From an uncultured Candidatus Saccharibacteria bacterium (GTDB lineage: Bacteria; Patescibacteriota; Minisyncoccia; Phycocordibacterales; VMEP01), in NCBI GenBank assembly GCA_964579635.1, contig CAZOFV010000003.1:2768-66767 (forward strand): a stretch of 64,000 nt of DNA. The letters are read 5' to 3'. Of the stretch, positions 14,936 to 58,378 are shown piece by piece (within the stretch, counting starts at the first letter, position 1; every line of letters begins with the position of its first letter). A program made the translations under genes and the position numbers. The notes beneath the pieces are model-generated. The model had not been told where the DNA came from. It made no database searches and saw only the letters and a list, made by a program, of their open reading frames with translations.

Positions 14936-15011
14936 TCTGCTATAATGGCCCTTTAGGAACTCTTGATTTTTAACATTGCCGAGGTTTGTGGCTATTTCGT
15001 GGGGGTGAAAA

Positions 15012-32798: not shown

Positions 32799-34165
32799 TT
32801 AATTTTTTTAAAAGATATCGTTTTGATTTGATTATTTTTGCTATAGCTTTAATAGTTAGAATTTTTTTGTTTAGCATTAATTTATCTGTTGAAAATGGTA
32901 ATTTAGATAAAACTATTCACGGCGATGATGGTTATTATGAAATAAGCAGGTCGTTAGTTGCCGGGCACGGCTTTACAGGGGAAACCAATCCTCCTTTTAA
33001 TCCTAATCCACTTAGGACGCCGTTGTACCCATATTTTATTGCCATTATTCTATTTTTAACCAATAGTTATTGGTTCGTAATTATTACCCAAATTATTATA
33101 GGGGCACTTATCCCAGTATTAGGAAGAAGATTATCTTTAAAGATTGTTGATTCTGAAAAAATAAGTTTCATTGTTGGTTTGATTCTAGCTCTTGAGCCAT
33201 ATCTTGTTCTTTTTTCTTCTGTTTTTTACACAGAGACTATTTTTATCTTTTTGTTTATTCTTTTTTCTATAATTTTTATTTCATACCTTAATAGCGACAA
33301 TAAAAAAACACTTGCATGGAGTGCTTTTGTTTTAGGTTTAGCTACGCTAACTAAAACCACCCCACAGTTTTTGCCGCTTTTTATACTTCCAGTTATTTAT
33401 TTGCAGTTTTGTAAAATTTTAACAAAAAAACAAATAGCGATTAGGTTTATATTATTTTTATTAATTTTTTTAGCAACATTATCTCCTTGGATTTATCGTA
33501 ATTACAATGAGTTTGGTAAGGTTGGTATGACAGCTCAACCAGCTTATAACGTTTACGTGTACTTAGTCCCGTCTGTTTTGTCGATTGAAAACAATACAGG
33601 TTTTTCAGAAGAATTAAACAAGTGGGCAACTCCAGCGGAAACATCGACCGATAAAATTACACTTGCAAACGGTGCTTTTTACATAAAAAAATCACTTCCT
33701 GTAATATTTGATCATCCTCAGGCTTTACTGAGCCTTGTTGGAATAAGTTTTGTGACATTTTTTACTCATGATGGAATGCTCACAGTCTTACAGCACGCCG
33801 GTATAACCCCAGATATTTATCCAAAAAGATCAGCTATTTCTCTTTTGTTTACATCGCCTGTAGAGTTTTTTCTACTTTTGAAAGAATTTGCAGCAAGCCC
33901 ATTAATTACCATCCTGTTTTTTAGGGTTTTTTGGATGGTCGTGACAATTGCTTTTTTTGTCGGTAGTATTGTTTTCATCCGAAAGAAAAAATATCACGCT
34001 AAAGGATTGTTTGCCTTGATTTTGGTTTTATATTTTTTAATAACAACTCCTATAAATGGATTAGGAGTGAACGCTCGCTTTCGAATGCCCGTTAATGCAA
34101 TTATCTTAACTTTCGCTGTTTACGGGATACTAAGACCAGATTTTAAAGAAAGATTAATTAAATGA
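32783..34165 (+). CDS. GT-C fold membrane glycosyltransferase (ArnT/PMT, GT39/83-like)
   Basis: About 11 TM helices. Extracytoplasmic loop GDDGYYEISRSLVAGHGF near the N-terminus resembles ArnT/PMT DE/DD motifs. Confidence 0.6.
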   Translation: MWKYMINFFKRYRFDLIIFAIALIVRIFLFSINLSVENGNLDKTIHGDDGYYEISRSLVAGHGFTGETNPPFNPNPLRTPLYPYFIAIILFLTNSYWFVIITQIIIGALIPVLGRRLSLKIVDSEKISFIVGLILALEPYLVLFSSVFYTETIFIFLFILFSIIFISYLNSDNKKTLAWSAFVLGLATLTKTTPQFLPLFILPVIYLQFCKILTKKQIAIRFILFLLIFLATLSPWIYRNYNEFGKVGMTAQPAYNVYVYLVPSVLSIENNTGFSEELNKWATPAETSTDKITLANGAFYIKKSLPVIFDHPQALLSLVGISFVTFFTHDGMLTVLQHAGITPDIYPKRSAISLLFTSPVEFFLLLKEFAASPLITILFFRVFWMVVTIAFFVGSIVFIRKKKYHAKGLFALILVLYFLITTPINGLGVNARFRMPVNAIILTFAVYGILRPDFKERLIK

Positions 34166-35724
34166 ATAAGTTATCTATAATAATTCCGTGTTATAACGAA
34201 TCTAAAACTATCCGTGAAATTTTACGGCGAGTTGAAGGTGCTCCAATGCCAGGATGGGAAAAAGAAATAATTGTTGTTGACGATGGTTCTTTTGATGGGA
34301 CAAGAGATATTCTTAAGGAATATAGTTCGCGAATGAAGATATTTTTTCAAGAGAAAAACGGCGGTAAAGGTACTGCTGTAAGGCGAGGTCTTAAAGAGGC
34401 AACAGGGGAATACTCAATCATACAGGATGCTGATTTGGAATATGATCCAAATGATATAAAGGGGCTACTTGGAGTAATTGATACTAATAAAGCAGACGTT
34501 GTTTATGGTTCTCGTAATTTACATCACGAAAAAAGAGAGGGGTTTATTGTTCAACGTCTTGGCGTTTGGTTTATAACAAAATTAATGAATGTTATTTACG
34601 GTTTTAAGTTAACCGATGTCTGGACTTGTTATAAGCTTTTTCCAACTGAAGCTGGGGTAGATTTTTTGACTGGACATTTTGAGTCGGAGCTTCTTTTTAC
34701 GGCGTCACTTGTTAGGCGTGGATATCGTTTTTCTGAGGTTGCTATTTCACATAATCCGCGTCCGGTTAGCGATGGTAAAAAGATTCGTTATAGGGATGGT
34801 GTACAAGCTATTATAGTTATAATCCTAGATTTCTTAGTACATCTTAAAAAAGCCGATAGTTATGTTGCAAAAAAAGTAAATGATATTATCGTATGTCCAT
34901 TTTGTAAAAATAATTTTTCTTTAAATAAAGAAGGTTACACTTGTAGCCTTCACGGCAATTTTACTGTTGATAAAAATGGGCGACCTCTCCTTATTGACAA
35001 GGGGATGTTACAACAAGAAGCAGAAGAGCACACCTCCGGAATTAATTGGTTGAAATCTTTCTTAAAACAATTTCCGACTATTTATTATGGAATTTGGCAT
35101 CTTTTTTGCCCAGTCCTTATGTTGGCTAATGGTCCACGCAAGATAAAAAAATTTATTTCAGATGGTACTTTAATTTTCGATATTGGTTCTGGACCAGAAA
35201 GGCTAGGGGAAGAATTTGTTAATGTCGATGTGTTTCCTTTTCATGGTGTAGATGTAGTTGCTGATGCAACAAATTTGCCATTTAAAAATAATTCTATTTC
35301 AGCGGCTGTTACAGAATCAATGTTAGAACACGTAGATGACCCTGTTGCTGTTGCAAAGGAGTTAGTACGTGTCTTAAAAAAAGATGGGGTGATTTATGTT
35401 AGTGCTCCGTTTATCCATCCATATCACGCTTCTCCTGATGATTTTGGTCGTTGGACAATAAGTGGCTTGAAAGACTTGTTTTCGGAATTGGAAATTATAG
35501 AAACAGGTGTTCGTTCAGGACCGTGGAGTGCTTTTCTCATGTTTTTTGCTTATTGGCTTGGTGTTATTTTTTCTTTTGGTTATAAAAAAGCTGCGCCATT
35601 TCTTGCGCATTTATTTATGCTTTTATTGGGGCCACTTAAGATTTTTGATTTAATTTTTATGTGGTTACCGGGTTCAGAGGCGGTTTCCGCTCATCTTTAC
35701 ATAATAGGTAAAAAGAGGGGTTAG
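34162..35724 (+). CDS. Fusion protein: GT2 polyprenyl-phosphate sugar synthase-like (DPM1/GtrB-like) N-terminus, Zn-ribbon, and class I SAM methyltransferase C-terminus
   Basis: SIIIPCYNE...VVDDGSFDGT...IQDADLEYDP (GT2). CPFCKNNF...CSLHG (Cys4-like ribbon). VESMLEHVDDP...LKKDGVIYVSAPF (Methyltransf_11). Confidence 0.7.
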   Translation: MNKLSIIIPCYNESKTIREILRRVEGAPMPGWEKEIIVVDDGSFDGTRDILKEYSSRMKIFFQEKNGGKGTAVRRGLKEATGEYSIIQDADLEYDPNDIKGLLGVIDTNKADVVYGSRNLHHEKREGFIVQRLGVWFITKLMNVIYGFKLTDVWTCYKLFPTEAGVDFLTGHFESELLFTASLVRRGYRFSEVAISHNPRPVSDGKKIRYRDGVQAIIVIILDFLVHLKKADSYVAKKVNDIIVCPFCKNNFSLNKEGYTCSLHGNFTVDKNGRPLLIDKGMLQQEAEEHTSGINWLKSFLKQFPTIYYGIWHLFCPVLMLANGPRKIKKFISDGTLIFDIGSGPERLGEEFVNVDVFPFHGVDVVADATNLPFKNNSISAAVTESMLEHVDDPVAVAKELVRVLKKDGVIYVSAPFIHPYHASPDDFGRWTISGLKDLFSELEIIETGVRSGPWSAFLMFFAYWLGVIFSFGYKKAAPFLAHLFMLLLGPLKIFDLIFMWLPGSEAVSAHLYIIGKKRG

Positions 35725-36653
35725 TAGTGTACAAATGTTGAGTACTTATTTTCAAAATATGATTTTTTGTCTGAATAGTAGCTCCAGTCTATTTGTTCTT
35801 TCTGCATAACAATAAAAGGGATATCCCCATAGTAGGACGCAAAAGCTCCAAACGTGCTATTTGCCCCTAAAATGAGGTCAGTTGATGAAAGTAGGAATAA
35901 GTCGTGAACTGCGTTTTCTTTGCTTAAATGGAGATTTAAATCGCTAAATAGTGGTGTTTCAATTGGTCCATCAGAGGTAATGATAAAACAAGTTTCCGAA
36001 GTATTAAGTCCCGATTTCTTTAAGTATTCATCAATAATTTCACGCACCCTTGTTTGTGGAATGAAATAAGCACCGTTTCGCCACTCCTTATAATCGCCTT
36101 GGCGAATATGTATTCCTATAAGATTCTTGAACTTACTCCTTAAGGTTTTTATCTGCGTAGCTACTTTTTTCTCAATATCTTGTCGTGGTTTAAAATATTC
36201 AATTATTTCTTTTCTATATTTTTTTATTCCTATGGGGTTACGGAAAAGCCATCCATCGAAATAAATAGTTTTACTTAATTTCTCAAACTCTGAGAGTTTC
36301 AAGTTCTCATTTGTTGGTGGAAGATAAAACGGTTTATTCTCACTATTATCGGATGTAATTACAGACTGTTTGTTTATTGAAATAATTATTTTTGTATAGT
36401 GTTCGTATAATTTTCTCCACAATCTGCGCTTGAGAGAAGTTTTCCTTTTCGTGTAATTGGTAAATGGAAGAAAGAAAAATAATCTAAAAAAAAGATTTGG
36501 TGCAGATATTGTGAAATAATTACCATACTCAAAAAAAGAATAATTTTGAAGTGTAAATTTTCTCTCAAGAGTATAGGCGTAAATGCTTATATAGTTCCAG
36601 AGTTGGTTTGAGAGCTCGTTTCCCGCCGTTTTAATAATTTTTATTTTTACCAT
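35721..36653 (-). CDS. Glycosyltransferase family 11 (alpha-1,2-fucosyltransferase-like)
   Basis: IGIHIRQGDY (GT11 motif I HxRRGDY) and a C-terminal ANSTFGAFASYYG motif. Confidence 0.6.
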   Translation of the reverse strand: MVKIKIIKTAGNELSNQLWNYISIYAYTLERKFTLQNYSFFEYGNYFTISAPNLFFRLFFFLPFTNYTKRKTSLKRRLWRKLYEHYTKIIISINKQSVITSDNSENKPFYLPPTNENLKLSEFEKLSKTIYFDGWLFRNPIGIKKYRKEIIEYFKPRQDIEKKVATQIKTLRSKFKNLIGIHIRQGDYKEWRNGAYFIPQTRVREIIDEYLKKSGLNTSETCFIITSDGPIETPLFSDLNLHLSKENAVHDLFLLSSTDLILGANSTFGAFASYYGDIPFIVMQKEQIDWSYYSDKKSYFENKYSTFVHY

Positions 36654-37478
36654 TTATTTTTTAGGACGGGCTTCTATAAAACACCTGCCGTCACTTTCTT
36701 CTTTTATAATTTTCATTTCATAGGAAATAGAAGAAAGGAAAGACACAACATTAAACATATTAAGCATTGAGTGTATCTCCATAAGTATAATAGGTTTTTT
36801 GTTCAAAATAGTGTTTTTTGCGCCAGCGAGGACAAGAGACTCAGCCCCTTCAACGTCTATTTTTATTATGTCTGGCAAATCTTTTATCCCGAGCTCTTTT
36901 TCGAATAGGTCTAATGGAACAGTTTTTACTTTTATTTCAGTAAAGCCACGTTGTTTAAAAGCAGCTCTTTCCCAGATAGTATCAGCGGTGTCTATAAAAC
37001 CACCAGAACTTCTCCCACTTTCAATATCATCACTCATGCTGAATTCTTCGGTTCCTAAAACATTTGATACGGCGATATCGAAAACAGAAATTATATTTTT
37101 TATATCATTATTTTTTTCACGTATTAGTTTCAATCGTTCAACATTTTTAGGATTTGGCTCAAAGGAATAGACCTTACCGTGAGGCCCAACAAGTTTTGCA
37201 AAATAAAAAGAATGAAATCCTATGTGTGCGCCAATATCAAAAATAATTTTACCTTCAAGTTTTTCTGACTCCAGGCGTTTAAAGAGAAAGGTGTCGTAAT
37301 TATTTTCAATAATATTTTTTTGCCACGGACCGTTTGGATCAAAAAATATTTGTAACCCGTTTAATGGTCTATAGGTGAGTGTCGTCCATTTTGGATGAAA
37401 TATTTTATTTTTTACAAATATTTTTTTTAAAAAATAAAATATTATTGGTGGAATTATATTTTTTATAATTTTTTTCAT
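36654..37478 (-). CDS. FkbM family methyltransferase
   Basis: IIFDIGAHIGFHSFYFA...VYSFEPNPKNVERL. Confidence 0.75.
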   Translation of the reverse strand: MKKIIKNIIPPIIFYFLKKIFVKNKIFHPKWTTLTYRPLNGLQIFFDPNGPWQKNIIENNYDTFLFKRLESEKLEGKIIFDIGAHIGFHSFYFAKLVGPHGKVYSFEPNPKNVERLKLIREKNNDIKNIISVFDIAVSNVLGTEEFSMSDDIESGRSSGGFIDTADTIWERAAFKQRGFTEIKVKTVPLDLFEKELGIKDLPDIIKIDVEGAESLVLAGAKNTILNKKPIILMEIHSMLNMFNVVSFLSSISYEMKIIKEESDGRCFIEARPKK

Positions 37479-37490
37479 GTTTGTTGAGAA

Positions 37491-38120
37491 TTATTTTTTT
37501 AAAATGAAATATCTAGTCCAGGCACTTTCGTTTGGGATATAACTTTCTATTACCCTGAGACCGCTTTTTTCAATCTCCTTAACAACCTTGCGGTACGGGT
37601 AATCAATGTTACCCATTTCCCAGTGGTGTCCACATGGAGCCCAGTATTTTTTGTTATTAATAGAAGGAATTCTTAATTGTATATTTTTTTCTTTCAGGAA
37701 TGGTAATTTAACCGTAAGCCTAAGTAGAGACTTTCCGTGATCTGGAAGAGAAATAATAATATTGCTTCTCGACACTCTACCCAGTTCTTTTAAGGCTGTA
37801 GAAAAAGAAGAAAAAGGTAGGTGTTCTAATATTTCAAATGCTACCGCTACATCAAAAGAATTATCTTTAAAGGGAAGATTAAGCACGTCACCGACTATAT
37901 CAGGGGTGGTTGTCGGGTCGTTATCAACCGTGACAACCTTAACATCATTTTCTCGTAAAATCTTTGCTGTAATACCACTACCAGTACCTATCTCAAGAAC
38001 ACTTTTTGGGTTTTGGTTAAAAATATTTTGATATTGGTGGTAGTAGCTATACCACCTTGGTTTGTGGTTGTACTCCTTTTTTAGGTAAATATTTGTGTTG
38101 GTTGTATCTGTTTTGTTCAT
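37491..38120 (-). CDS. Class I SAM-dependent methyltransferase
   Basis: VLEIGTGSGITAKIL motif I and FEILEHL. Confidence 0.7.
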   Translation of the reverse strand: MNKTDTTNTNIYLKKEYNHKPRWYSYYHQYQNIFNQNPKSVLEIGTGSGITAKILRENDVKVVTVDNDPTTTPDIVGDVLNLPFKDNSFDVAVAFEILEHLPFSSFSTALKELGRVSRSNIIISLPDHGKSLLRLTVKLPFLKEKNIQLRIPSINNKKYWAPCGHHWEMGNIDYPYRKVVKEIEKSGLRVIESYIPNESAWTRYFILKK

Positions 38121-38881
38121 TTTTTAAAATTATATAGACCAGTTCCAAACCCACTATTAGGAGAGTATTCATTGGTCAAATTATTTCCATAAATATATTT
38201 TTCCTCTATTAGTTTTAGTGGCTTAAATAATTCTAAAACATAATCACGCGTGAAAGCCCGATGAGCATTGAAATAAACATTATTCTCTTTGTCTATTGGA
38301 ACAGAAATATACAGATTACCACCAGGGGACAAAACACGAGTTAGCTCTTTTGCTGCCTTTTCAGAGCCAAATTGGTCTAATTGGTCGCCATATCTACCAA
38401 GTCCAATATGTTCGATGACACATATTGAGCTAAGAGAGGAAATTTCATTATCTTTAAAAGGGAGATCTGTAACACTCCCTTTTATAAAAGACAGTTCTGG
38501 TAAAGATATGGATAAAGGCCTAATGTCTATCATTGTTGTTGGTACGAATTTGGATATTATTCCTACCATGATTGCTTGTGACCCTACATCATAGTGTTTT
38601 GTTGGTTTTTGTTTAAAAATTTTTTCTGCACACCATGTACCTTGAAGGAAATATATTGGATCGACGTTTGTCGAGGTGGTCTTGTCGTATATTCTAGGAA
38701 AAAGATTCTCCGTTTTTACTCGATATGTTTTATTAGTTTCTTTTTTTTTGAAGTAATAGTAATCAGATAAAAAATACACAAACATCCTTAGTCGTTTTAA
38801 AAAGTTTGGTTTTATTGAAAAAATGCGAAAAAAAATTACAAGATACTTGAAAATGGGTATTTTTTTTAATAGCGATTTCAT
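38117..38881 (-). CDS. DUF268-type putative SAM-dependent methyltransferase
   Basis: Resembles the DUF268 methyltransferase-like family (YDVGSQAIMVG...VIEHIGLGRYGD). Confidence 0.5.
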   Translation of the reverse strand: MKSLLKKIPIFKYLVIFFRIFSIKPNFLKRLRMFVYFLSDYYYFKKKETNKTYRVKTENLFPRIYDKTTSTNVDPIYFLQGTWCAEKIFKQKPTKHYDVGSQAIMVGIISKFVPTTMIDIRPLSISLPELSFIKGSVTDLPFKDNEISSLSSICVIEHIGLGRYGDQLDQFGSEKAAKELTRVLSPGGNLYISVPIDKENNVYFNAHRAFTRDYVLELFKPLKLIEEKYIYGNNLTNEYSPNSGFGTGLYNFKK

Positions 38882-38884
38882 TTT

Positions 38885-39319
38885 TTATTCCTTGTCACTC
38901 GATTTTAATAAAAGCTCACTCGAGGAATATATTTTTGGTAAATCAAGGATTTGGAATTTTATATTATTATCTTTACACGTTGATAGCTCGCTAATTTCTA
39001 AGTTACCATCTTTTCGATCTCCGCTGTTAAAGAAAAATAAATCGTCGTTTTGATACTTACTTCTAAGGTATTTTAATGATTCGCACTGTGTCTTGTCTTT
39101 ATCTATTGAAATAAATACCTCATCAACAGATTTAAGGTTGCTCATTATTTTTGCCCTGTGTTCTTCGTCCATAAATGGCTGTGAGCCCTTAAGGGATACT
39201 TGATGGTCACTGTTTATTATGCAGATAAGCTTATCAGATAGCTTTTTTGCCTCATTTATATATTCAAGGTGTCCATAATGTAGTGGGTTAAAGTACCCAG
39301 AAACTATTCCTATTATCAT
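38885..39319 (-). CDS. Cytidylyltransferase-like nucleotidyltransferase (HldE domain II / glycerol-3-phosphate cytidylyltransferase family)
   Basis: GYFNPLHYGHLEY (HxGH motif). 144 aa. Confidence 0.7.
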   Translation of the reverse strand: MIIGIVSGYFNPLHYGHLEYINEAKKLSDKLICIINSDHQVSLKGSQPFMDEEHRAKIMSNLKSVDEVFISIDKDKTQCESLKYLRSKYQNDDLFFFNSGDRKDGNLEISELSTCKDNNIKFQILDLPKIYSSSELLLKSSDKE

Positions 39320-39361: not shown

Positions 39362-40336
39362 TTATACATTAGAGAATTGGTTTTTTCGCACAATTTGATA
39401 CCCCTTTATCAATTCATTGATAGCATCTTCTATTGGCATTTGTGTAACGAACCCTGTTTTTTCTATTTTTTCATTACTTATTATGTAATTTCTTTTATCT
39501 GGATCTTCGCCGATAGGGGATTCTATAAACACAAACTTAGGTAGTTGTTCTTTTATTTTTTCGCATAACTCAGATTTGCTTAAATTGGTATTTGAAAGGC
39601 CCACATTATATGATTGGTTTTTCATACTTTCAAAATTTTCCATTGCGTGTATAAAAGCAAAAGCAACATCTCTTACGTGTATATAATTTCTTTTGAAATG
39701 TGGCTCAAACAATACAACAGCTCTGTCTGTAACTGCACGATAAACAAAATCGTTTACGAGTAAATCCATGCGCATACGCGGACTAATTCCGCAGACTGTT
39801 GCTAGTCTGAATGTTATGGCATTTCCAGCCTCAAGAAGGGCTTTTTCGGTTTCGACTTTTAGTCTGCCGTAAAGAGAGACCGGCTCAAGTGGACTATTTT
39901 CATCACAATATGCGACACCTTCTTCCATTCGACCATAACCACTATTTGTATTCGGAAAGATTATTTTTTGTTCTGGTGTGCGAAGCTTAAGAAGCATCAA
40001 GATTGCGTCGCGGTTTATGCTGGTAGCACCCAACGGGTCTTGATCACACAAAGGGGCGCCAACTAAACAGGCAAGTGGAATTATGAAATCCTTATCAATA
40101 ATATGTTTTTTAATTAAAGATTCATTCCTCGCATCTCCGCGAATGATTGTGAGTGTTTTATAGTGGCAAACATCAAGAAGGGGTGATTGATTAAAGAGAA
40201 AATTATCTATTACAGTAACTTCATGTCCTGCCTTGAGTAATTCTGGCACTAAAACCGCTCCGATGTATCCCGCCCCTCCTGTTATAAGAATTTTTTTCAT
40301 GTTGTTTATTATATATTCAAATTTATAAGGTTTCAA
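39362..40336 (-). CDS. NAD-dependent epimerase/dehydratase (SDR, GalE-like)
   Basis: ILITGGAGYIGAVL Rossmann motif and YxxxK. Confidence 0.75.
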   Translation of the reverse strand: MKPYKFEYIINNMKKILITGGAGYIGAVLVPELLKAGHEVTVIDNFLFNQSPLLDVCHYKTLTIIRGDARNESLIKKHIIDKDFIIPLACLVGAPLCDQDPLGATSINRDAILMLLKLRTPEQKIIFPNTNSGYGRMEEGVAYCDENSPLEPVSLYGRLKVETEKALLEAGNAITFRLATVCGISPRMRMDLLVNDFVYRAVTDRAVVLFEPHFKRNYIHVRDVAFAFIHAMENFESMKNQSYNVGLSNTNLSKSELCEKIKEQLPKFVFIESPIGEDPDKRNYIISNEKIEKTGFVTQMPIEDAINELIKGYQIVRKNQFSNV

Positions 40337-40349
40337 TTTATGTGTTTAC

Positions 40350-41312
40350 TCATAATATTTCTGGGTAAACAAGCGATGTCCCGCGATCTTCAAATTTAAA
40401 ATCAAGAACATTTTCTTTAAACTCTTCTATAATATTTTTTTTAGTATTACTGTCGCATATTACCATTAAAAATCCGCAACCCCCGCTTCCAAGTAGCTTT
40501 ATTCCGTACGCACCCATACCCATAACTTGTTCTACCATTTTATCTATTTTTTCTGTTGAGATAAGCGGTGATATTTTACGTTTTTCGTTCCATGACTCTA
40601 GTAATAATTCTCCAATTCCCTTGATATCTTCTTTTAAAAAATAATCGTAAGCTTTTAGAGATAGTTCGAGTATCTTTTTTTTATCTTTGTTTTCGTGTGA
40701 TTGTGCTATCTCATTTTGGTTTCTTTGGTCGTTTGTGTAAATCAAAACAATAGAGTCTTCAAACTCACTTTTAAATTTATCTGAAACCGGTAGCGGTTTA
40801 ACAGAAAAATTTCCATTTTTTTCAATTGTTATCGTATTAAAACCACCGTATGCCGCCCATATTTGGTCTTGGATGCCGCCACTTTCTTTTAATATATTTC
40901 TTTCAATATGGATGGCGGTTTTGGCTATATCTTCCTTACTCACGGTTTCTCCCTTCAGATTTTTCATAAGATGTATCATTCCTGCACAAAAAGAAGAAGA
41001 ACCACCAAGACCTGTTCTTGCTGGTACGTCAGCAGAGGAGTTAAAATCTATGTGATTTTGGATATCTTGGTGTTTTAAAACTTCTCTAATAAGTGGATTT
41101 TGAATATCATTAAAAGAAGATACCACTTCGTGTTTAGAGTAGACTATGGAGTGTTCTTTCGGGAGAATTTTTGGTCTATATCTAGCTGATAGCCATATAT
41201 ATTTATCAATTGTGGTTCCTATAATAAACGAACCGTGTTCTTTGTAGAAAGATTCATAGTCAGTTGACCCGCCAAAAAATGATATTCTTAGTGGTGCTTT
41301 TACTATTATCAT
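40350..41312 (-). CDS. GHMP kinase (sugar-phosphate kinase; heptose-7-phosphate kinase HddA-like)
   Basis: PARTGLGGSSSF matches the GHMP ATP-binding motif PxGSGLGSSAA. Confidence 0.7.
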   Translation of the reverse strand: MIIVKAPLRISFFGGSTDYESFYKEHGSFIIGTTIDKYIWLSARYRPKILPKEHSIVYSKHEVVSSFNDIQNPLIREVLKHQDIQNHIDFNSSADVPARTGLGGSSSFCAGMIHLMKNLKGETVSKEDIAKTAIHIERNILKESGGIQDQIWAAYGGFNTITIEKNGNFSVKPLPVSDKFKSEFEDSIVLIYTNDQRNQNEIAQSHENKDKKKILELSLKAYDYFLKEDIKGIGELLLESWNEKRKISPLISTEKIDKMVEQVMGMGAYGIKLLGSGGCGFLMVICDSNTKKNIIEEFKENVLDFKFEDRGTSLVYPEIL

Positions 41313-42496
41313 ATAGAGTTTAACAGCTTACATAGTCTAGGAATATTGCTTTTTTCAAGCCCTGGATAGTTTCCTATATACCACCCGAAATGATGCACGT
41401 GGTTGGTATTGGGGTAATTTAAATATTCATTACCAAAGAGACGTCTTAGATATGGTTGCATAAGCTGGTTTCCTCCACCAGACATTCCTCTTCTGAATTC
41501 AATCATGTTTTCTTTGAGGATTTTTTCTACACTATCTCTCATCTTAAAATCAGCTTTTTTTAAGAGTAGGGTAAAGGCGTAGTTAGAATTTCCTGTTTGA
41601 TTAAAATCAGTAAAGTATTTTTCATTATCGAGATTTTTTAGAAAGATTTTTAAGTTGTCTTTTCTTATTTTGTTGTTTTTATCCAACCTCTTTAGTTGAT
41701 TTATCGCCATTACAGCATTAATTTCACTATTTCTCATGTTGTATGCAGGAGAAGAAAAAATGAAATCAGTATTTAAATCACTATATTTTTTAGCGTAATC
41801 ATTTTTTATTTTTTCGTTAGTACATTCTCTTACCATGCCGTGAGATCTAAACATTCTTGCGTGCTGATATATTTTTTCGTCGTCAGTGCAAATCATGCCA
41901 CCCTCAACCGAAGAAAGGTGGTGGGCATAATAAAATGAAAAATTAGAAACTAAACCAAATGAGCCACATTTCTTCCCTTTGAATGTTGCTCCATGTGATT
42001 CACACACATCTTCAATAAGTATAATTTTTTTCTTTTTACAGATATCGAGTAGCTCTTCTGTAAGGCCATTGTATCCAAGAATGTGGGTTAAAAATATCGC
42101 ACGAGTTTTTGGTGATATTTTCTTTTTTAATTCCTCAACATCTATGGCTAAAGTAGAAAGGTTAATATCACAAAATACCGGGGTAAATCCATTTTGTAAA
42201 ACGGAAGCGATATCAGAAACCCAGGTTAATGGAGGTACTATTATTTCCCCAGTTCCATAGATCTCTTTTAAAGCCAACATCGTAATTTGGTTAGCTGAGC
42301 TACCAGAGTTTACAAAAACACAGTATTTAACACCAAGCCATTTTGCCCATTTTTCCTCAAATTCCCTTACTTTTTTTGATTGCGTAAGAATAGGGACTTC
42401 TTTTTGAGACAGAAAAGAAACAACCTTGTTAACGTCTTCCCGGGAAATGTTGTTAGACATTAATGGCCAATTAGTAATTTTTTTGTGTTTATTCAT
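41309..42496 (-). CDS. DegT/DnrJ/EryC1 family PLP/PMP enzyme with His replacing the catalytic Lys: sugar 3-dehydratase (ColD/E1-like)
   Basis: The DegT fold motif reads SFYYAHHLSSVEGG, where true aminotransferases have SF...K....GEGG. Lys-to-His is the hallmark of ColD and CDP-6-deoxy-4-hexulose-3-dehydrase E1. Confidence 0.7.
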   Translation of the reverse strand: MNKHKKITNWPLMSNNISREDVNKVVSFLSQKEVPILTQSKKVREFEEKWAKWLGVKYCVFVNSGSSANQITMLALKEIYGTGEIIVPPLTWVSDIASVLQNGFTPVFCDINLSTLAIDVEELKKKISPKTRAIFLTHILGYNGLTEELLDICKKKKIILIEDVCESHGATFKGKKCGSFGLVSNFSFYYAHHLSSVEGGMICTDDEKIYQHARMFRSHGMVRECTNEKIKNDYAKKYSDLNTDFIFSSPAYNMRNSEINAVMAINQLKRLDKNNKIRKDNLKIFLKNLDNEKYFTDFNQTGNSNYAFTLLLKKADFKMRDSVEKILKENMIEFRRGMSGGGNQLMQPYLRRLFGNEYLNYPNTNHVHHFGWYIGNYPGLEKSNIPRLCKLLNSI

Positions 42497-42675
42497 TTTA
42501 ATAGTTTTGTGTTTTTAGCGTTAGATTCTATAGGATATCATAATTATACTACTTCTGAGAAGGAGCTTTTTGGACCTTTGGTTGCGATGATATTTACGTT
42601 TATTTTTGAGCAAAATTGACAGAGGTATTTTTTTTACATAACATTACTTAATCATTTATCCTCTTAATTAAAAAT

Positions 42676-43704
42676 ATGGAAAAAATAAAAAATAAGAAAG
42701 CGGAAGCAAAATTAAAAAAAATAAAAAGAGTGTTAATTACTGGTATTTCTGGTTCAGGTGGAAGTTATTTAGCCGAATATATAGTTAAAAATCATCCAAA
42801 AATTGAGGTTCATGGTATGGGTCGTTGGCACAGCACTACCGTTACAGATAATCTTCATGAGATTAGAGATAAGGTTATTTTACATGAATGTGATCTTATG
42901 GATTTTAGTTCTGTTTTGTCAGCATTAGAGAAAAGTAAACCAGACGCAATTTTCCATTTGGCGGCTCATGCTAACGTGCGGGCGTCGTTTCAAACACCGC
43001 TATCTGTTTTGAATAATAATATTATGAGTACAGCAAATCTTTTTGAGGCTATTCGTGCCGCAAAAATTAACCCACTTATTCAGCTTTGTAGCAGTTCAGA
43101 AGTTTACGGCATAGTAGATCCTAAATATGTTCCAATTAACGAAAGTACACCAATGTGTCCAACGAGCCCGTACGCTGTTTCAAAGGTTGCACAAGACATG
43201 CTTGGTTATAGTTATTTTAAATCATACAAAATGCCAATAATAAGGACGAGAATGTTTACCTACCTAAATCCTCGTCGAACTGACTTATTTGCAACTTCTT
43301 TTGCTAGGCAGGTAGTCAGGATAGAAATGGGATTACAGAAAGAGTTGGTACATGGGAACCTTGATTCAATAAGAACAATTATCGACGTAAGAGACGCCAT
43401 GCGGGCTTATTGGGACGCTCTTATATATTGTGAGCCAGGGGAGGCCTACAACATAGGAGGAACGACAACAATCTCGGTTGGTGATTTTTTAGACACATTA
43501 ATATCTCTTGCAAAAAAACCAATTCCAACGAGAGTGGACCCTGCTTTGTTACGTCCGTCAGATGTAACCCTTCAAATTCCTGATACAAGTAAATTTTGTA
43601 AAACGACAGGGTGGGAACCAGAATATACATTTAAGGAAAGTATGGCGCACCTTTTAGATCACTGGCGTAAAGAAGTAGCAAAAGAACTAACTGCCACCAA
43701 ATAA
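42676..43704 (+). CDS. NAD(P)-dependent sugar nucleotide dehydratase/reductase (Gmd/Rmd/ColC-like SDR)
   Basis: VLITGISGSGGSYLAEYIV resembles Gmd [14 protein letters not shown]. 342 aa. Confidence 0.65.
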   Translation: MEKIKNKKAEAKLKKIKRVLITGISGSGGSYLAEYIVKNHPKIEVHGMGRWHSTTVTDNLHEIRDKVILHECDLMDFSSVLSALEKSKPDAIFHLAAHANVRASFQTPLSVLNNNIMSTANLFEAIRAAKINPLIQLCSSSEVYGIVDPKYVPINESTPMCPTSPYAVSKVAQDMLGYSYFKSYKMPIIRTRMFTYLNPRRTDLFATSFARQVVRIEMGLQKELVHGNLDSIRTIIDVRDAMRAYWDALIYCEPGEAYNIGGTTTISVGDFLDTLISLAKKPIPTRVDPALLRPSDVTLQIPDTSKFCKTTGWEPEYTFKESMAHLLDHWRKEVAKELTATK

Positions 43705-43837: not shown

Positions 43838-45379
43838 GTGGATAAAAAATTAGATGTTTTGTTTGTTAATCCCGATTCGTCCTTTCAGGCTTATCAGGGA
43901 TTGAGTGAAATCTACGCGGCCATTGAGCCACCCACTTGGGCGCTATTGTTGGCCCAGAGTTGTCGTGCAAAGGGGTTTGGAGTCGGCATCCTTGATTGTG
44001 GTGCAGAAAGGCTTAGCTTAGGCGATGCGGTGAAACGTATCGTAGAAGAAAAACCAAGACTCATTTGCTTTGTGATGTACGGGCAAAACCCAAACTCCGG
44101 TACGGCCAGTATGGCCGGCGCTGAACTTTTGGGCAAAGAGCTGAAAGAACTTTACCCCGAAGTTACGTTGTGTTTCGTCGGTTCCCATGTAAGTGCCTTA
44201 CCCAGAGAAGTTTTGGCAATTGATTGTGTAGACCTCGTGCTATTAAACGAAGGGGTTTATGCTTTGCACAACTTACTCCAGACTGACCTTAGCAATTCAT
44301 CGCTCGGGAAAGTAAAGGGTATTGGCTACAAGAAAGATGGGGTTTTGGTCTTGAACCAGCCAGAACGAGTGGTACCGCAAGAAAGAATGGATATTGATTT
44401 ACCGGGGTATGCCTGGGACCTTCTTCCTTGCCGCGAAAGGCCGCTTGATATGTATCGTGCTCATTTTTGGCATGCAGGTTTTGATCACGACAAGCGCACC
44501 CCATTTGCGGCGATTTACACCTCCCTTGGATGCACCTTCAAGTGTGATTTTTGCATGATTAACATCGTTAATCGTGTTGACAACACAGACGGTATATCCG
44601 CCGGCAATTCCCCAGGAATGCGTTTTTGGTCACCCGAGTTTATTCTCGGTGAATTTGAAAAGCTGGCAGCGATGGGTGTTGAGACAGTCAGAATCTCGGA
44701 CGAAATGTTTTTTCTCAACAAGCGTTTTTTTAACCCGCTTCTCGCTGGGGTTGTCGACAGGGATCTGAAGTTTCGCATGTGGGCATACTCAAGGGTGGAC
44801 ACGGTTCAACCTCAGTACTTAGAACTTTTTAGGCGCGCTGGTATTAATTGGCTCGCCTTAGGTGTTGAGGCTGGGAATCAGATCGTAAGACGGGATGCTT
44901 CCAAGGGTTCGTTCAAAGATGTGAACATTCGAGATGTGGTAAATACCGTGCGTTCTGGCGGTATAAACGTCATCGCGAATTACATTTTCGGACTTCCCGA
45001 GGATAGCACGGCAACGATGCAGGAAACACTAGATCTTGCCGTTGAGCTAAATACGGAAATGGTGAATATGTATCCGTGCCAAGCTCTCCCTGGAAGTACG
45101 CTTTATTTTGAGGCTAGGAAAAACGGGATTGCTTTACCGGATTCCTATTCTGGCTACGCGTTTCTTTCTTACGAAAGCCAGCCGTTACCAACCAAGTACT
45201 GCTCTTCGGCAGAAGTACTTCGCTTCCGTGATAATGCGTGGACAACGTATTTTTCCAACCAAGATTACCTCGCCCTTGTGGAGAGAAAATTTGGTGAGGA
45301 AGAACGCAGAAACGTTGAGGCGATGTCGAAGATAAGGTTGTTACGCAAGATTCTTGGGGATCCTGCTCCCGAGAAATGA
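43838..45379 (+). CDS. B12-binding (class B) radical SAM enzyme, GC-rich, probable sugar C-methyltransferase or rearrangement enzyme
   Basis: N-terminal B12-binding-like domain. CTFKCDFC (Cx3Cx2C) radical-SAM cluster motif. GC content is clearly above the flanks. Confidence 0.7.
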   Translation: MDKKLDVLFVNPDSSFQAYQGLSEIYAAIEPPTWALLLAQSCRAKGFGVGILDCGAERLSLGDAVKRIVEEKPRLICFVMYGQNPNSGTASMAGAELLGKELKELYPEVTLCFVGSHVSALPREVLAIDCVDLVLLNEGVYALHNLLQTDLSNSSLGKVKGIGYKKDGVLVLNQPERVVPQERMDIDLPGYAWDLLPCRERPLDMYRAHFWHAGFDHDKRTPFAAIYTSLGCTFKCDFCMINIVNRVDNTDGISAGNSPGMRFWSPEFILGEFEKLAAMGVETVRISDEMFFLNKRFFNPLLAGVVDRDLKFRMWAYSRVDTVQPQYLELFRRAGINWLALGVEAGNQIVRRDASKGSFKDVNIRDVVNTVRSGGINVIANYIFGLPEDSTATMQETLDLAVELNTEMVNMYPCQALPGSTLYFEARKNGIALPDSYSGYAFLSYESQPLPTKYCSSAEVLRFRDNAWTTYFSNQDYLALVERKFGEEERRNVEAMSKIRLLRKILGDPAPEK

Positions 45380-45396: not shown

Positions 45397-45432
45397 CCAC
45401 GCGTGGCAGTATGCCACGCGTGTTTTTTTTAT
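45397..45432 (+). terminator. Rho-independent terminator after the radical SAM gene
   Basis: CCACGCGTGGC-agtat-GCCACGCGTG hairpin plus T8. Confidence 0.6.
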
Positions 45433-45493: not shown

Positions 45494-46132
45494 ATGGATA
45501 GTAATAAAATATCGTCTGGAAAGGGGAGAGACTTAACCCCAGAAGATTTAATTAACTTTGAGGAAGAAATTGCAGAATTATTTAATTCTGCAAAAATCCG
45601 ATCGCCGATACATCTTTATTATGGAAACGAAAAGGAGATAATAGAAGTATTCCGCGATGTTAAAGAAGACGACTGGGTAATGTGTTCTTGGAGAAGTCAT
45701 TACCAATGTCTTCTTAAAGGTGTTCCAGAAGATAAATTACGCGAAGAGATTCTTGCTAATAGGTCAATATCACTATGTTTCCCTGAACAGAGAATAGTTT
45801 CTTCCGCAATTGTGGGAGGGATTCTTCCGATTGCAGTCGGGGTTGCTATGGGTATCAAAAGAAGTGGTGGGAAAAATAAAGTCCACTGTTTTATGGGAGA
45901 TATGACATCAGAGACTGGTATAGCACACGAATGTATTAAATACGCGACAAATCACGATTTGCCAATACGTTTTATTATTGAAGATAATGGAAAGTCTGTG
46001 TGCACAGAAACACTTAATACATGGAAACAAGATAAACTTACATACGAAGACACTAAAAATCCCATGATAATTTATTATAAATACCAAACTAAATATCCTC
46101 ATGCCGGAGCGGGGGAGCGGGTTCAATTTTAA
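45494..46132 (+). CDS. Minimal TPP-dependent dehydrogenase E1 alpha-like subunit
   Basis: FMGDMTSETGIAHECIKYATNHDLPIRFIIEDNG matches the TPP-binding GDG...E..N...LP..F..ENN motif. Only 212 aa. Confidence 0.6.
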   Translation: MDSNKISSGKGRDLTPEDLINFEEEIAELFNSAKIRSPIHLYYGNEKEIIEVFRDVKEDDWVMCSWRSHYQCLLKGVPEDKLREEILANRSISLCFPEQRIVSSAIVGGILPIAVGVAMGIKRSGGKNKVHCFMGDMTSETGIAHECIKYATNHDLPIRFIIEDNGKSVCTETLNTWKQDKLTYEDTKNPMIIYYKYQTKYPHAGAGERVQF

Positions 46133-46135
46133 TTT

Positions 46136-46672
46136 ATGAAATATTTCGAAGAACTTAGTCGCGCAATGGAAATGATCGCACAAGATGAGAGGTCTTTTTT
46201 TATTGGACAAGCGGTGGCGTGTCCAGGGACTGCGATGACCACAACTCTTAAAAATGTCCCCCGAGAAAAACTTTTAGAACTTCCCGTTGCGGAAGAAATG
46301 CAGATGGGGATGTCTATAGGCCTTGCGTTAGCTGGTCATATCCCAGTTAGTATTTTCCCAAGGTGGAATTTTTTGCTTGTGGGAACAAGTCAGCTGGTTA
46401 ATCATTTGGATAAATTATCTATTATGTCAAACGGAGGTTATAAACCCAAAGTTATTATCCGTACGGGCATTGGGTCTGTTCGCCCGATGCATCCACAGTT
46501 TCAACATGTAGGTGATTACACAGAAGCGTTTAGGCTTATGTGCCCAAACGTTGAAATAATTCGTCTTGAAGAGCCGGAAGATATTTTTCCTGCATATAAA
46601 AAATCTCTTGAAAGAGAGGATGGTAAGAGTACTATTTTAGTTGAGTACGGAGATTACTATAACGAGAAATAG
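46136..46672 (+). CDS. Minimal E1 beta / transketolase pyrimidine-binding-domain-like subunit
   Basis: FIGQAVACPGT...LPVAEEMQMGMSIGLALAGHIPV resembles the transketolase Pyr domain. 178 aa, 4 nt downstream of the alpha-like gene. Confidence 0.55.
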   Translation: MKYFEELSRAMEMIAQDERSFFIGQAVACPGTAMTTTLKNVPREKLLELPVAEEMQMGMSIGLALAGHIPVSIFPRWNFLLVGTSQLVNHLDKLSIMSNGGYKPKVIIRTGIGSVRPMHPQFQHVGDYTEAFRLMCPNVEIIRLEEPEDIFPAYKKSLEREDGKSTILVEYGDYYNEK

Positions 46673-46729: not shown

Positions 46730-47488
46730 CTAAGCACGTCCCTTTGGAAGGGTCCACTCCCCAGATGAAGCAGAAAGTTTTATTGGAGCGGTATTGCAAA
46801 CAAAGATCGAGTCAAAAGGAGCTATAAATTTTTCCTTTATTTCAAATCCAGCACATTTAAGCATTGATTCAATTGAGCTAGGCGTCATTCCCCAAAACCA
46901 GTTTGCATAACCTTCTTCTGGTTCATATGGTGTTGTGATTCCTATTTGGCTACTCATTTTTCTATTCCAAATTTTTCTTTGACTTTCATCTAAGAATGGA
47001 TAAAGCACTGCCATATTTTTCATTCCAGGAACTTCTGGTATGGATGCAGTATTTAAGATTAAGGTTTCTCCACAAATAGCGCGAAGTCTTGTGAGAAGGT
47101 GAATAGGATCTGGTGTGTGGTAAAGAACCCCAGAGCATAGTACGACATCACATACTCCAATAGCGTCAGTTGTTGAGGATTGATGGATGTCTCCTTGAAT
47201 AAATCCAATTTTAGAATTTCTTTTATTTTTTTCTTCTATAAACTTTGGGCTTTCTGGGTATATATCAATAGCTGTTACTTTTTTTGCACCGCTTTCTTCT
47301 GCAATAAATGAGTTTAGTCCATTTACTCCCCATAGTGCACCAACGTCGGCAAAAGATTTTCCCTTAACATATTTTCTAATCAAGTCAGCATTAGTAGTTT
47401 GTTTTATTCCAACAATTTTTTTTATTTTTCTTAAAGCTCTGTTGACTATTTGGTTGTGTCTAGTTAGCGTAGTAATTTTGTATAACAT
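46730..47488 (-). CDS. Class I SAM-dependent methyltransferase
   Basis: Rossmann-like VTAIDIYPES...CDVVLCSGVLYH region. Confidence 0.55.
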   Translation of the reverse strand: MLYKITTLTRHNQIVNRALRKIKKIVGIKQTTNADLIRKYVKGKSFADVGALWGVNGLNSFIAEESGAKKVTAIDIYPESPKFIEEKNKRNSKIGFIQGDIHQSSTTDAIGVCDVVLCSGVLYHTPDPIHLLTRLRAICGETLILNTASIPEVPGMKNMAVLYPFLDESQRKIWNRKMSSQIGITTPYEPEEGYANWFWGMTPSSIESMLKCAGFEIKEKFIAPFDSIFVCNTAPIKLSASSGEWTLPKGRA

Positions 47489-48485: not shown

Positions 48486-49058
48486 ATGTTTATTAAAGAC
48501 AGAATTCAAACATCTATTGATACAAAGAAGCGTCTATTGGATGACGTTTCTATTATTAGTATTGCAGAAGATATAACTAAAGCTATAACCGAAAGTTACG
48601 AAAAAGGGAATAAGACTCTTTGGTGTGGAAATGGGGGAAGTGCTGCCGATGCTCAACACCTGGCCGCTGAACTTTCTGGTAAATATTATTTTGATCGCGA
48701 ACCACTTTCTTCTGAGGCTCTTCATGTTAATACTTCTTATCTTACGGCTGTGGCAAACGATTACTCATACGATATTGTTTACGCAAGGCTAGTAAAAGCC
48801 ACTGGGAAAAAGGGAGATGTTTTAGTTGGGCTTTCTACTTCAGGAAATTCAAAAAATGTTGTTCTTGCGTTAGAAGAGGCTAAAAAAATAGGAATGATCA
48901 CAGTCGGGTTTACTGGAGAGAAACCATCTAAAATGGATTCACTTTGTGACTATTTAATAAAAATACCCTCAGTTGATACTCCACGCATACAGGAATGCCA
49001 CATGTTATTGGGACATTCAATTTGTGAAGGAGTTGAGCAAAATCTTTTTGGTGTGTAA
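48486..49058 (+). CDS. gmhA: D-sedoheptulose-7-phosphate isomerase (SIS domain)
   Basis: LWCGNGGSAADAQHLAAEL and GLSTSGNS, the GmhA signatures. Confidence 0.85.
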   Translation: MFIKDRIQTSIDTKKRLLDDVSIISIAEDITKAITESYEKGNKTLWCGNGGSAADAQHLAAELSGKYYFDREPLSSEALHVNTSYLTAVANDYSYDIVYARLVKATGKKGDVLVGLSTSGNSKNVVLALEEAKKIGMITVGFTGEKPSKMDSLCDYLIKIPSVDTPRIQECHMLLGHSICEGVEQNLFGV

Positions 49059-49938: not shown

Positions 49939-51098
49939 GTATTTTTATCTAGTTTTAATACTTCATCAATAAATTTTGCATAAGCCTCGGAAAAAGTTTC
50001 CCTGGTATATGTTTTTCTGGCATATTTCCATACTGAAATAGATTTTTCAATAATTTCTTCTTGTGGGGTGTTTGAGAATTCTTTAACTATTTTTGAAATT
50101 GATAATGGTGTAGGGTTTTCTAATGGTACATATTCAGCATCTTCTTTTATCCCTGTTTCATGCGTAATTATTGGTATAAGTCCAGCATGCATAGCTTGAA
50201 CAACAGCACCAGAAGAACCTTCTCCTCCAGATGGGTAAATTAAGGCAGAACATTTTTCGACAATTTCCGCAAATTGTTTACCTCCAACGTCGATACGTCC
50301 GTAATAGTGTATATTCGGTGTTTCGTATAATTCCTTTTTGTAGATTTTAACGAAATCATCTTCTGCTGAAACTGGCCCACAAACATGAAGGTGTAAATCA
50401 GGCATCATTGTGAATGCTTCAAGTGTTAAGTCTAATCCCTTGAGGACTGCGCCACCGCCACCGACCCATAAATAATTTTTTCTAGCTTTGTCCCAGTCTT
50501 TTTTTTCAGGGAAATCAAATTTTACTACAGCTGAAATTGGTATAAAAAATATAGGTTTATTGAAACGCTCAAAGGTTGCAAATATTGTCTTATTTCCAAA
50601 CCCTTCAAGAAAATCGGCAGTTTCCGTGTTTTCCGTCGGAGACATTTTTCTTCTTGGGATAAGTTTAACACCGCGCCTTTTTTCTAGTTGATTAAGACGA
50701 TCTTGCTCGGCTTTGTTATAAGCTTCCCAGTGAGACATTAATATGTGAAATACTTTCTTGCATTTTTGTGGGAGGATTTCGGAAAGACGTTTTAAGTTTT
50801 TATCAGTGTCTATACATACTACGTATTTTTTTCGAGGCTTAAATGATGTATTTTTTGAATCAATTATGTCAACTTCGTAACCTCTTTCTGAAAAAAGTCT
50901 TGCAATTTCATAACACTCCCAGTACATGGTATGTATATTTGAAAAAGACTCCCAAGGGGTAAGGGTAAATGGTTCTGTAATATAAGAAATTAAAACATCG
51001 CCCCTCTTTTTACCAACCGGCTTCATAGTAACAACTCCAAAAAGTTTATTGGTTACCTTGTTTTTATATGCCCAATAAATAGCAGTTATCTTATTCAT
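49935..51098 (-). CDS. Glycosyltransferase (GT-B, GT4-like)
   Basis: LIYPSGGEGSSGAVVQAMHAGLIPIITHETG. Confidence 0.65.
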   Translation of the reverse strand: MNKITAIYWAYKNKVTNKLFGVVTMKPVGKKRGDVLISYITEPFTLTPWESFSNIHTMYWECYEIARLFSERGYEVDIIDSKNTSFKPRKKYVVCIDTDKNLKRLSEILPQKCKKVFHILMSHWEAYNKAEQDRLNQLEKRRGVKLIPRRKMSPTENTETADFLEGFGNKTIFATFERFNKPIFFIPISAVVKFDFPEKKDWDKARKNYLWVGGGGAVLKGLDLTLEAFTMMPDLHLHVCGPVSAEDDFVKIYKKELYETPNIHYYGRIDVGGKQFAEIVEKCSALIYPSGGEGSSGAVVQAMHAGLIPIITHETGIKEDAEYVPLENPTPLSISKIVKEFSNTPQEEIIEKSISVWKYARKTYTRETFSEAYAKFIDEVLKLDKNT

Positions 51099-57402: not shown

Positions 57403-57410
57403 TTTTTACT

Positions 57411-58361: not shown

Positions 58362-58378
58362 GTCCTATAAGTTATAGT

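Follow-up and report, generated by a model that had tools for sequence, protein, structure and literature searches.

To our knowledge, three narrow groups, namely ColD, E1 and SpnQ, account for the known His-type sugar 3-dehydratases, which come mostly from pathogens and antibiotic producers. Here we describe a further predicted enzyme of this type, encoded in a stretch of 64,000 nucleotides (called the window throughout) from an uncultured Candidatus Saccharibacteria bacterium (contig CAZOFV010000003.1 of GenBank assembly GCA_964579635.1); it belongs to a clade of its own, and the genes that accompany it point to a heptose rather than a hexose substrate. All characterised DegT-family enzymes that carry His in place of Lys are C3-dehydratases (PMC8987622). 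A [2Fe-2S] motif of four Cys is found in E1 and SpnQ, which depend on a reductase, whereas ColD lacks the motif and has its pyridoxamine 5'-phosphate (PMP) regenerated from glutamate (PMC8987622).

Members of the ColD group share 62-67% identity (PMC10440746). For the GDP-6-deoxy-4-keto-heptose C3-dehydratase of Campylobacter jejuni HS:5/HS:11, GDP-heptose is supplied via GmhA, HddA and HddC, and the 4,6-dehydratase DmhA acts upstream (PMC10440746); this C3-dehydratase also accepts the product of Cj1427 in vitro (PMC10680097). Cj1427 is a GDP-heptose C4-dehydrogenase that works by a ping-pong mechanism and turns alpha-ketoglutarate into L-2-hydroxyglutarate, and a ColD-family enzyme converts its product in vitro to GDP-D-glycero-3-deoxy-4-keto-heptose, 3-deoxy-heptoses being described as novel by Raushel's group (PMC10680097). 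Sugars with a 3-deoxy-4-keto structure are acceptors for thiamine-dependent branching at C4 in yersiniose and erwiniose (PMC9306805), and pyruvate-dehydrogenase-like heterodimers have been proposed for C4 branching of nucleoside diphosphate (NDP)-4-keto sugars (PMC4753412, PMC10338323).

The dehydratase and its active-site His

The original prediction was of a DegT-family protein with a His at the position of the Schiff-base Lys, and both parts of it are borne out. The protein matches the Pfam family DegT_DnrJ_EryC1 (PF01041) over nearly its full length (252 bits, residues 36-390). In a phmmer search against all PDB chains, the best match was ColD/WbdK of E. coli O55 (2GMS; 194 bits, E 4e-56) and the next was E1 of Yersinia (3BCX; 131 bits), with ordinary sugar aminotransferases below both, at 123 bits or less and in partial alignments. 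The A-H-H of the dehydratase lies over the S-H-H of ColD, which puts His192, and no Lys, in the catalytic column. We equate His192 with ColD His188 because the mutant ColD chains in the PDB, 2r0t (H188K), 3b8x (H188N) and 3gr9 (S187N/H188K), vary precisely at that column. His220 of E1, in its 'PAHH' motif, falls in the same column, and DegT paralogs of related loci that bear a Lys have it there. Residues A191, H192 and H193 are conserved at 98% or more in 310 sequences of the clade, so the replacement of Lys by His is not a matter of chance.

The enzyme had been put forward as either ColD-like or E1-like, and its Cys content favours the former. The dehydratase lacks the Cys-rich insert CYCAPGCDNTC of E1, and the E1 segment DCYCAPGCDNTC has no counterpart in it when the two are aligned; the iron-sulfur motif C-X57-C-X1-C-X7-C of E1 is absent, and C165, within EDVCES, is the single Cys conserved among the 310 clade sequences. 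Because the insert is absent and just one Cys is conserved, the chemistry fits the ColD type best, with a predicted dependence on PMP and glutamate and neither an Fe-S cluster nor an E3 reductase; an E1-type enzyme with an Fe-S cluster is rejected for want of the motif. No E3-like or ferredoxin-reductase gene was found among the recurrent neighbours of the clade dehydratases. The top Foldseek matches of an AlphaFold model (predicted local distance difference test, pLDDT, 84.4; predicted template modelling score, pTM, 0.85) were ColD structures, with template modelling (TM) scores of 0.80-0.83, where members of the family score about 0.8.

In chemistry of this type, glutamate would turn pyridoxal 5'-phosphate (PLP) into PMP on the enzyme, and the C4 keto group of the sugar would condense with this PMP to a Schiff base. 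His192 would then take the C4' proton as the 3-hydroxyl departs, and hydrolysis would free a 3-deoxy-4-keto sugar and ammonia. Together, these sequence comparisons confirm the predicted protein as a His-for-Lys member of the DegT family and support its assignment to the sugar 3-dehydratases.

A separate clade with conserved partners

Identities were taken from an alignment of the dehydratase with ColD and E1, both read from PDB alignments, and with the C. jejuni HS:5 heptose C3-dehydratase (supplement of PMC10440746). The window enzyme is 33% identical to ColD, 30% to the HS:5 enzyme and 28% to E1; ColD and the HS:5 enzyme are 61% identical to each other. A neighbour-joining tree, built from distances and carrying no support values, joins the clade of the dehydratase with the ColD group as its sister; the E1 group branches off next, with the Lys enzymes as outgroup. 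The protein thus groups with dehydratases and away from the Lys aminotransferases. By sequence, then, the enzyme is not a ColD orthologue and belongs to its own clade.

This clade is widely distributed, its members being 57-96% identical to the window dehydratase. A protein search listed 120 matches at 63-96% identity, among which the named ones were from Patescibacteria, Parcubacteria or Paceibacteria metagenome-assembled genomes (MAGs). A scan of one genome per GTDB species yielded at least 586 confirmed relatives. The best 80 of these, 57-83% identical to the window enzyme, carry the labels Saccharibacteria, Verrucomicrobia, Planctomycetes (including Kuenenia), Cyanobacteria, Deltaproteobacteria, Chloroflexi, Binatia, Nitrospirales, Elusimicrobia, Spirochaetales and Woesearchaeota, among others, and the clade spans candidate phyla radiation (CPR) bacteria and DPANN archaea. 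When a betaproteobacterial member was the query, 7948 clusters were returned at E <1e-100, all of them metagenomic or MAG proteins, and neither this search nor a cluster look-up identified a cultured carrier. Given a clade found across so many phyla, the expectation that a sugar of the dideoxyhexose type is out of the ordinary in this organism does not apply to it. Public pipelines label its proteins 'CDP-6-deoxy-D-xylo-4-hexulose-3-dehydrase', 'E1' or 'aminotransferase'.

Two related loci (loci are designated by L and a number) hold a clade member together with a member of a characterised group. Locus L076, labelled Woesearchaeota, has a separate ColD-like paralog (9935-11134; 41% identical to ColD) that adjoins a true gmd, and L008 has a true RfbH/E1 (14012-15361) that scores 455 bits against the RfbH cutoff of 423. 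This coexistence argues that the clade is functionally distinct from both ColD and E1. Each of these loci may produce more than one deoxy sugar; L008 also has a second split transketolase pair.

The genomic neighbourhood of the clade is conserved. In 83 loci, open reading frames (ORFs) were called, clustered and labelled with the window proteins and cluster representatives; 82 of the loci come from other species, 27 have at least 8 kb on both sides, and partners were counted within 8 kb of the dehydratase gene. Among the 27 fully flanked loci, a thiamine enzyme of any of three lineages was present in 25, an HddA-like kinase in 24 and a B12-radical S-adenosylmethionine (SAM) enzyme in 21. A Cj1427-like short-chain dehydrogenase/reductase (SDR) and a nucleotidyltransferase, usually HddC-like, were each present in 20, an Fcl-like SDR in 16 and a DmhA/Rmd-like SDR in four. 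GmhA and GmhB occur in 13-14 of the 82 loci. Seven members make up the smallest set that recurs (for example in L006, L012, L021, L029, L052 and L086): the Cj1427-like SDR, HddC, HddA, thiamine alpha and beta subunits, the dehydratase and the radical SAM enzyme.

The thiamine enzyme beside the dehydratase belongs to one of three unrelated lineages, which are a short E1-like pair, a long pyruvate-dehydrogenase E1-like pair and a split transketolase. That they substitute for one another argues for a required C2 transfer. Ten loci also encode an L-2-hydroxyglutarate oxidase (614 bits, cutoff 299; at 12943-14157 in L054, for example), a gene absent from the window. Because L-2-hydroxyglutarate is the by-product of Cj1427 (PMC10680097), the oxidase supports the assignment of the Cj1427-like SDR, and its presence fits recycling of the L-2-hydroxyglutarate formed by a Cj1427-type dehydrogenase. 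Our literature search found nothing relevant on a module that combines heptose, radical SAM and thiamine genes.

A candidate heptose pathway

We think it fairly probable that the dehydratase is an NDP-4-keto-heptose 3-dehydratase with ColD-type chemistry, feeding the synthesis of a C4-branched and further modified higher sugar. Judged from its sequence context, its most likely substrate is an NDP-4-keto-heptose and not GDP-4-keto-6-deoxymannose. The dehydratase gene begins a minus-strand operon (Table 1), and the start of the HddA-like kinase overlaps its stop by 4 bases. The Cj1427-like SDR, for which the ATG at 40300 is the likely true start, has the motif TNSGYG and lacks the dehydratase Glu. 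The title of PDB entry 6VO6 is Cj1427; a single-sequence AF2 model of this SDR was poor (pLDDT 44) and served only to read that title. The small nucleotidyltransferase (best PDB match 3GLV) occupies the position held by HddC in most related loci, as do its counterparts in L003, L008 and L010, and its sequence and place make it a probable heptose-1-phosphate nucleotidyltransferase. The three methyltransferases of the operon are confined to the closest relatives, and its last gene encodes a possible glycosyltransferase for the product of the module.

Table 1. Positions in the window of the dehydratase, its operon, the divergent genes and the gmd/fcl pair.
Feature	Position	Strand	Basis
Predicted DegT-family PMP-dependent sugar 3-dehydratase, His-type clade, 395 residues	41309..42496	-	Pfam, PDB, Foldseek, tree
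Active-site motif SFYYAHHLSSVEGG	41897..41938	-	Translation; His192 codon 41921-41923, stands for the Schiff-base Lys
HddA-like GHMP sugar kinase	40350..41312	-	Best PDB matches are heptose-7-phosphate kinases 4N3O, 4USK, 3K85
Cj1427-like NDP-heptose C4-dehydrogenase, SDR	39362..40336	-	372 bits, 55% identity to PDB 6VO6
Small cytidylyltransferase-fold nucleotidyltransferase	38885..39319	-	TIGR00125 61 bits; RfaE domain II 57 bits, below cutoff
SAM methyltransferase, DUF268 type	38117-38881	-	Pfam
SAM methyltransferase, Methyltransf_11	37491-38120	-	Pfam
SAM methyltransferase, Methyltransf_21	36654-37478	-	Pfam
Weakly GT11-like gene, last of the operon	35721..36653	-	Pfam Glyco_transf_11 19 bits, below cutoff
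DmhA/Rmd-like SDR, divergent	42676..43704	+	PF16363 236 bits; SSSEVYG motif
B12-binding radical SAM enzyme	43838..45379	+	Pfam B12-binding and Radical_SAM
Thiamine-diphosphate enzyme alpha (E1-alpha-like)	45494-46132	+	Pfam E1_dh
Thiamine-diphosphate enzyme beta (transketolase-pyrimidine-domain)	46136-46672	+	Pfam Transket_pyr
GmhA-like sedoheptulose-7-phosphate isomerase	48486..49058	+	TIGR00441 188.5 bits, cutoff 209
fcl	57411-58361	-	NCBIfam 502 bits, cutoff 500
gmd	58379-59482	-	TIGR01472 584 bits, cutoff 415

The divergent side of the module holds an SDR, the radical SAM enzyme and the two thiamine subunits. The SDR had been described as a second Gmd/Rmd/ColC-like enzyme; the SDR itself is there, but its best PDB match is the C. 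jejuni GDP-D-glycero-D-manno-heptose 4,6-dehydratase (7US5; 201 bits), ahead of Rmd (2PK3; 187 bits) and Gmd (136 bits), and against the TIGR gmd model it reaches 149 bits where the cutoff is 415. The best NCBIfam matches of the radical SAM enzyme are HpnJ (101 bits) and BchE (80 bits), both far below cutoffs, and its PDB matches are weak (37 bits or less). HpnJ and BchE are carbocycle-forming enzymes. The GmhA-like gene lies about 6 kb from the dehydratase gene and is syntenic in L001 and L003.

Other features of this region were recorded alongside. A strong hairpin (45398-45422; 11 bp, GC-rich, with a T-run) follows the radical SAM gene, and a promoter scan gave 49 matches against 44 expected, no better than chance. 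The radical SAM gene has a GC content of 47%, its neighbours 32-41%, and it is 74% identical to its syntenic counterpart in L003, where neighbouring genes are 87-97% identical; this gene alone may have been replaced recently.

For the pathway as a whole, we infer the substrate, the nucleotide, the order of the steps and the final product as follows. GmhA and the HddA-like kinase would convert sedoheptulose-7-phosphate to a heptose phosphate, a phosphatase encoded outside the window would remove the 7-phosphate, and the small nucleotidyltransferase would form an NDP-heptose. The Cj1427-like dehydrogenase, the DmhA-like SDR or both would yield the 4-keto (or 6-deoxy-4-keto) heptose, from which the His-type dehydratase would strip the 3-hydroxyl. 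These two steps may be coupled, since the dehydratase reaction would yield the alpha-ketoglutarate that the Cj1427-type reaction would consume. The two-subunit thiamine enzyme would add a C2 acyl branch at C4 of the 3-deoxy-4-ketone, a branch of the kind known from yersiniose and eurekanate; the B12-radical SAM enzyme would methylate or cyclise the product, and the methyltransferases of the operon would O-methylate it.

One specific end product can be proposed, although we consider it quite unlikely: a heptose-derived 3-deoxy sugar whose C4 acetyl branch is closed onto C7 by the radical SAM enzyme, giving a caryose-type carbocyclic nonose (4,8-cyclo-3,9-dideoxy-nonose). A C-methylated C10 relative would be an alternative. 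The biosynthesis of caryose has been reported as unknown (PMC9092360).

Several other known sugars were considered and set aside. Erwiniose and caryophyllose were dropped as heptose-plus-methyl products, as the literature describes long acyl branches placed on a 3,6-dideoxy-4-keto-hexose by YerE-like enzymes (PMC9306805). Bradyrhizose has no visible link to the module, its published locus comprising 11 sugar-modification genes that include a dTDP-glucose 4,6-dehydratase (PMC4743980). The 174.09-Da residue of the Kuenenia S-layer glycan (PMC5088730) does not match the heptose-derived products, which we estimate by our own arithmetic at about 204-218 Da.

A number of observations weigh against the heptose pathway. 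The Cj1427-like SDR is the sole heptose-gene assignment that does not fall below curated cutoffs: the kinase scores 142 bits against the NCBIfam HddA cutoff of 600, and the matches of the small nucleotidyltransferase and the GmhA-like protein also lie below theirs. By tblastn, neither an NTP_transferase (the HddC-type guanylyltransferase) nor a GmhB phosphatase was found in the window; both HddC and GmhB occur in related loci. At 201 against 187 bits, the divergent SDR may be either an NDP-heptose 4,6-dehydratase or a 4-reductase, and with a C4-dehydrogenase and a DmhA/Rmd-like SDR both encoded, the 6-hydroxyl of the product could be retained or lost. The roles given to the thiamine and radical SAM enzymes are by analogy only, and the catalytic loop of the dehydratase (residues 190-195) is poorly modelled (pLDDT <50). 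Because the enzyme is only 28-33% identical to any characterised 3-dehydratase, substrate specificity cannot be transferred from one to the other. The same glycan locus has a true gmd, which makes GDP-4-keto-6-deoxymannose available in the cell, and the dehydratase might accept that compound from the nearby Gmd.

This last point leads to the best surviving rival, a true ColD. On that account GDP-4-keto-6-deoxy-D-mannose from the window's Gmd would be dehydrated and the SDR would finish GDP-colitose or another 3,6-dideoxyhexose. This was the original prediction, which took gmd, fcl and the second SDR for a complete GDP-linked 3,6-dideoxyhexose set. All three genes exist, with gmd and fcl scoring above the cutoffs of their models (Table 1), and ColD is the best solved-structure match of a dehydratase that, like ColD, has no Fe-S motif; ColD-family enzymes, moreover, can take a hexose as well as a heptose as substrate (PMC10440746, PMC10680097). 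However, gmd and fcl, despite lying in the same 38-kb glycan locus, are 15 kb from the dehydratase in a separate operon with wzm, wzt, an RMNT_CmcI methyltransferase and a GT11 fucosyltransferase, and this set explains GDP-fucose by itself, as a separate GDP-L-fucose module. The operon partners of the dehydratase are heptose genes instead. A true gmd was found within 8 kb of the clade dehydratase in none of the 27 fully flanked loci, and in L076 it is the ColD-like paralog that adjoins gmd, with the clade member elsewhere in the locus. Identity to ColD is also low for a family whose characterised members share 61-67% (our alignment; PMC10440746). We therefore regard a true ColD as unlikely, and a colitose pathway through the window's gmd and fcl is rejected as the principal explanation on operon structure and comparative context.

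Loss of deoxygenation altogether is very unlikely. The protein would then be an unusual aminotransferase, or another PLP enzyme, with His in place of Lys, making a 4-amino sugar or catalysing some other step of the thiamine/radical SAM pathway. SpnQ does show aminotransferase activity when deprived of its reductase (PMC8987622), and the uncharacterised clade has only about 30% identity with known dehydratases. Yet the His is invariant in the clade, the characterised enzymes of this kind are all C3-dehydratases (PMC8987622), the tree sets the clade inside the dehydratase group with the Lys enzymes as outgroup, and the conserved neighbours include no N-acyl or N-methyl transferase. Least probable of all is an E1/SpnQ-type enzyme acting on a CDP- or dTDP-4-keto-6-deoxyhexose with a reductase partner for the glucoseen intermediate: RfbH is the best NCBIfam match of the dehydratase (216 bits), the A-H-H and the C-terminal motifs (NxxxQPY, IGxYPGL) are closer to E1 than to ColD, pipelines name clade members after the CDP-sugar enzyme and the window's nucleotidyltransferase has the cytidylyltransferase fold, but the RfbH score is far under the cutoff of 423, the Cys-rich insert and any recurrent reductase gene are absent, and L008 keeps a true RfbH alongside its clade member.

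The glycan locus and the closest known systems

The window is low in GC (36%), with housekeeping genes at both ends (GroEL, ribonucleotide reductase and Mur ligase) and a glycan locus from about 21.6 to 59.5 kb. Upstream of this locus (18278-21578 and 7888-8391) are genes for a TrwB/TraG-like coupling ATPase, a protein with lamin-tail and PKD domains and a type IV pilin-like protein. At least eight SAM methyltransferase genes, an unusually large number, lie within the locus (34162-35724, 36654-38881, 27743-29285 and 46730-47488), one of them encoding a GT2-methyltransferase fusion. The region 52865-59482 of this CPR-like genome encodes a complete ATP-binding cassette (ABC) transporter set for glycan export and termination. 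It is made up of wzm, wzt, whose product has a Wzt_C carbohydrate-binding domain, an RMNT_CmcI O-methyltransferase, a GT2 glycosyltransferase, the GT11 fucosyltransferase, fcl and gmd, and it points to a polymer whose terminus is methylated, like those of O-antigen systems. Divergent from gmd, at 60304-60786 within an ORF at 59845-60786, is a second small cytidylyltransferase-fold nucleotidyltransferase (RfaE domain II, 80 bits), 41% identical to the one at 38885-39319. Amidation of a sugar acid is a possible role for an asparagine-synthase-type amidotransferase (51091-52857) that is set among glycosyltransferases and syntenic in L001 and L003.

These results have implications beyond the one locus. 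The clade of the window enzyme is a fourth His-type group, much larger than the three known, environmentally widespread and mislabelled by public pipelines. In its loci a Cj1427-type C4-dehydrogenase and a C3-dehydratase occur together in nature, a combination so far reported only as an in vitro route to 3-deoxy-heptoses (PMC10680097). With the product identified, the bacterial glycans would gain a new higher sugar, probably branched or carbocyclic, and thousands of misannotated genes would gain a function. In CPR bacteria, the locus speaks for an elaborate surface glycan that is heavily methylated, ABC-exported and contains a heptose derivative. If the caryose-type product were correct, the clade and its invariant partners, namely the Cj1427-type oxidase, the two-subunit thiamine enzyme and the HpnJ/BchE-like B12-radical SAM enzyme, would make a sugar class not yet assigned to genes. 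Its makers would then number hundreds of uncultured species, ranging from CPR bacteria to Planctomycetes, Verrucomicrobia, Cyanobacteria and DPANN archaea.

Among described enzymes, ColD/WbdK of E. coli O55 (2GMS, 3B8X) is alike in its DegT fold, the His at the Lys position, an EDxCES motif in the cofactor region, the lack of an Fe-S motif and, probably, a glutamate-driven PMP chemistry. The window enzyme differs in its 33% identity, its A-H-H in place of S-H-H, its E1-like C-terminal motifs and its position in a separate clade, which is accompanied by heptose, thiamine and radical SAM genes and not by gmd and colC. E1 (RfbH/DdhC/AscC; 3BCX) shares with it the replacement of Lys by His, the A-H-H and the C-terminal motifs, but is only 28% identical, is longer (437 against 395 residues) and relies on a [2Fe-2S] Cys motif and an E3 partner that are absent here. 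In yersiniose synthesis, the 3,6-dideoxy-4-keto product of E1 is the acceptor for thiamine-dependent C4 branching (PMC9306805), and the same logic may apply to the window module.

The C. jejuni HS:5/HS:11 GDP-6-deoxy-4-keto-heptose C3-dehydratase (PMC10440746) is likewise a His-type C3-dehydratase, but it is close to ColD (62-67% in PMC10440746; 61% in our alignment), whereas the window enzyme is 30% identical to it. In comparison with the C. jejuni GDP-heptose cassette, the window has a Cj1427-type dehydrogenase and, in the place of HddC, a cytidylyltransferase-fold enzyme; the published C. jejuni pathways are without thiamine or B12-radical SAM enzymes. The C4-acetyl branching systems for yersiniose (YerE) and for eurekanate and paulomycose (AviB1/B2, Pau11/12, EvdU5/EvdS3) act on hexoses or pentoses, and none of them is reported to use a heptose precursor or to have a B12-radical SAM partner. 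They resemble the window module in combining a 4-keto (3-deoxy) NDP-sugar with a thiamine enzyme, and those of actinomycetes share its heterodimeric, pyruvate-dehydrogenase-like form (PMC4753412, PMC10338323).

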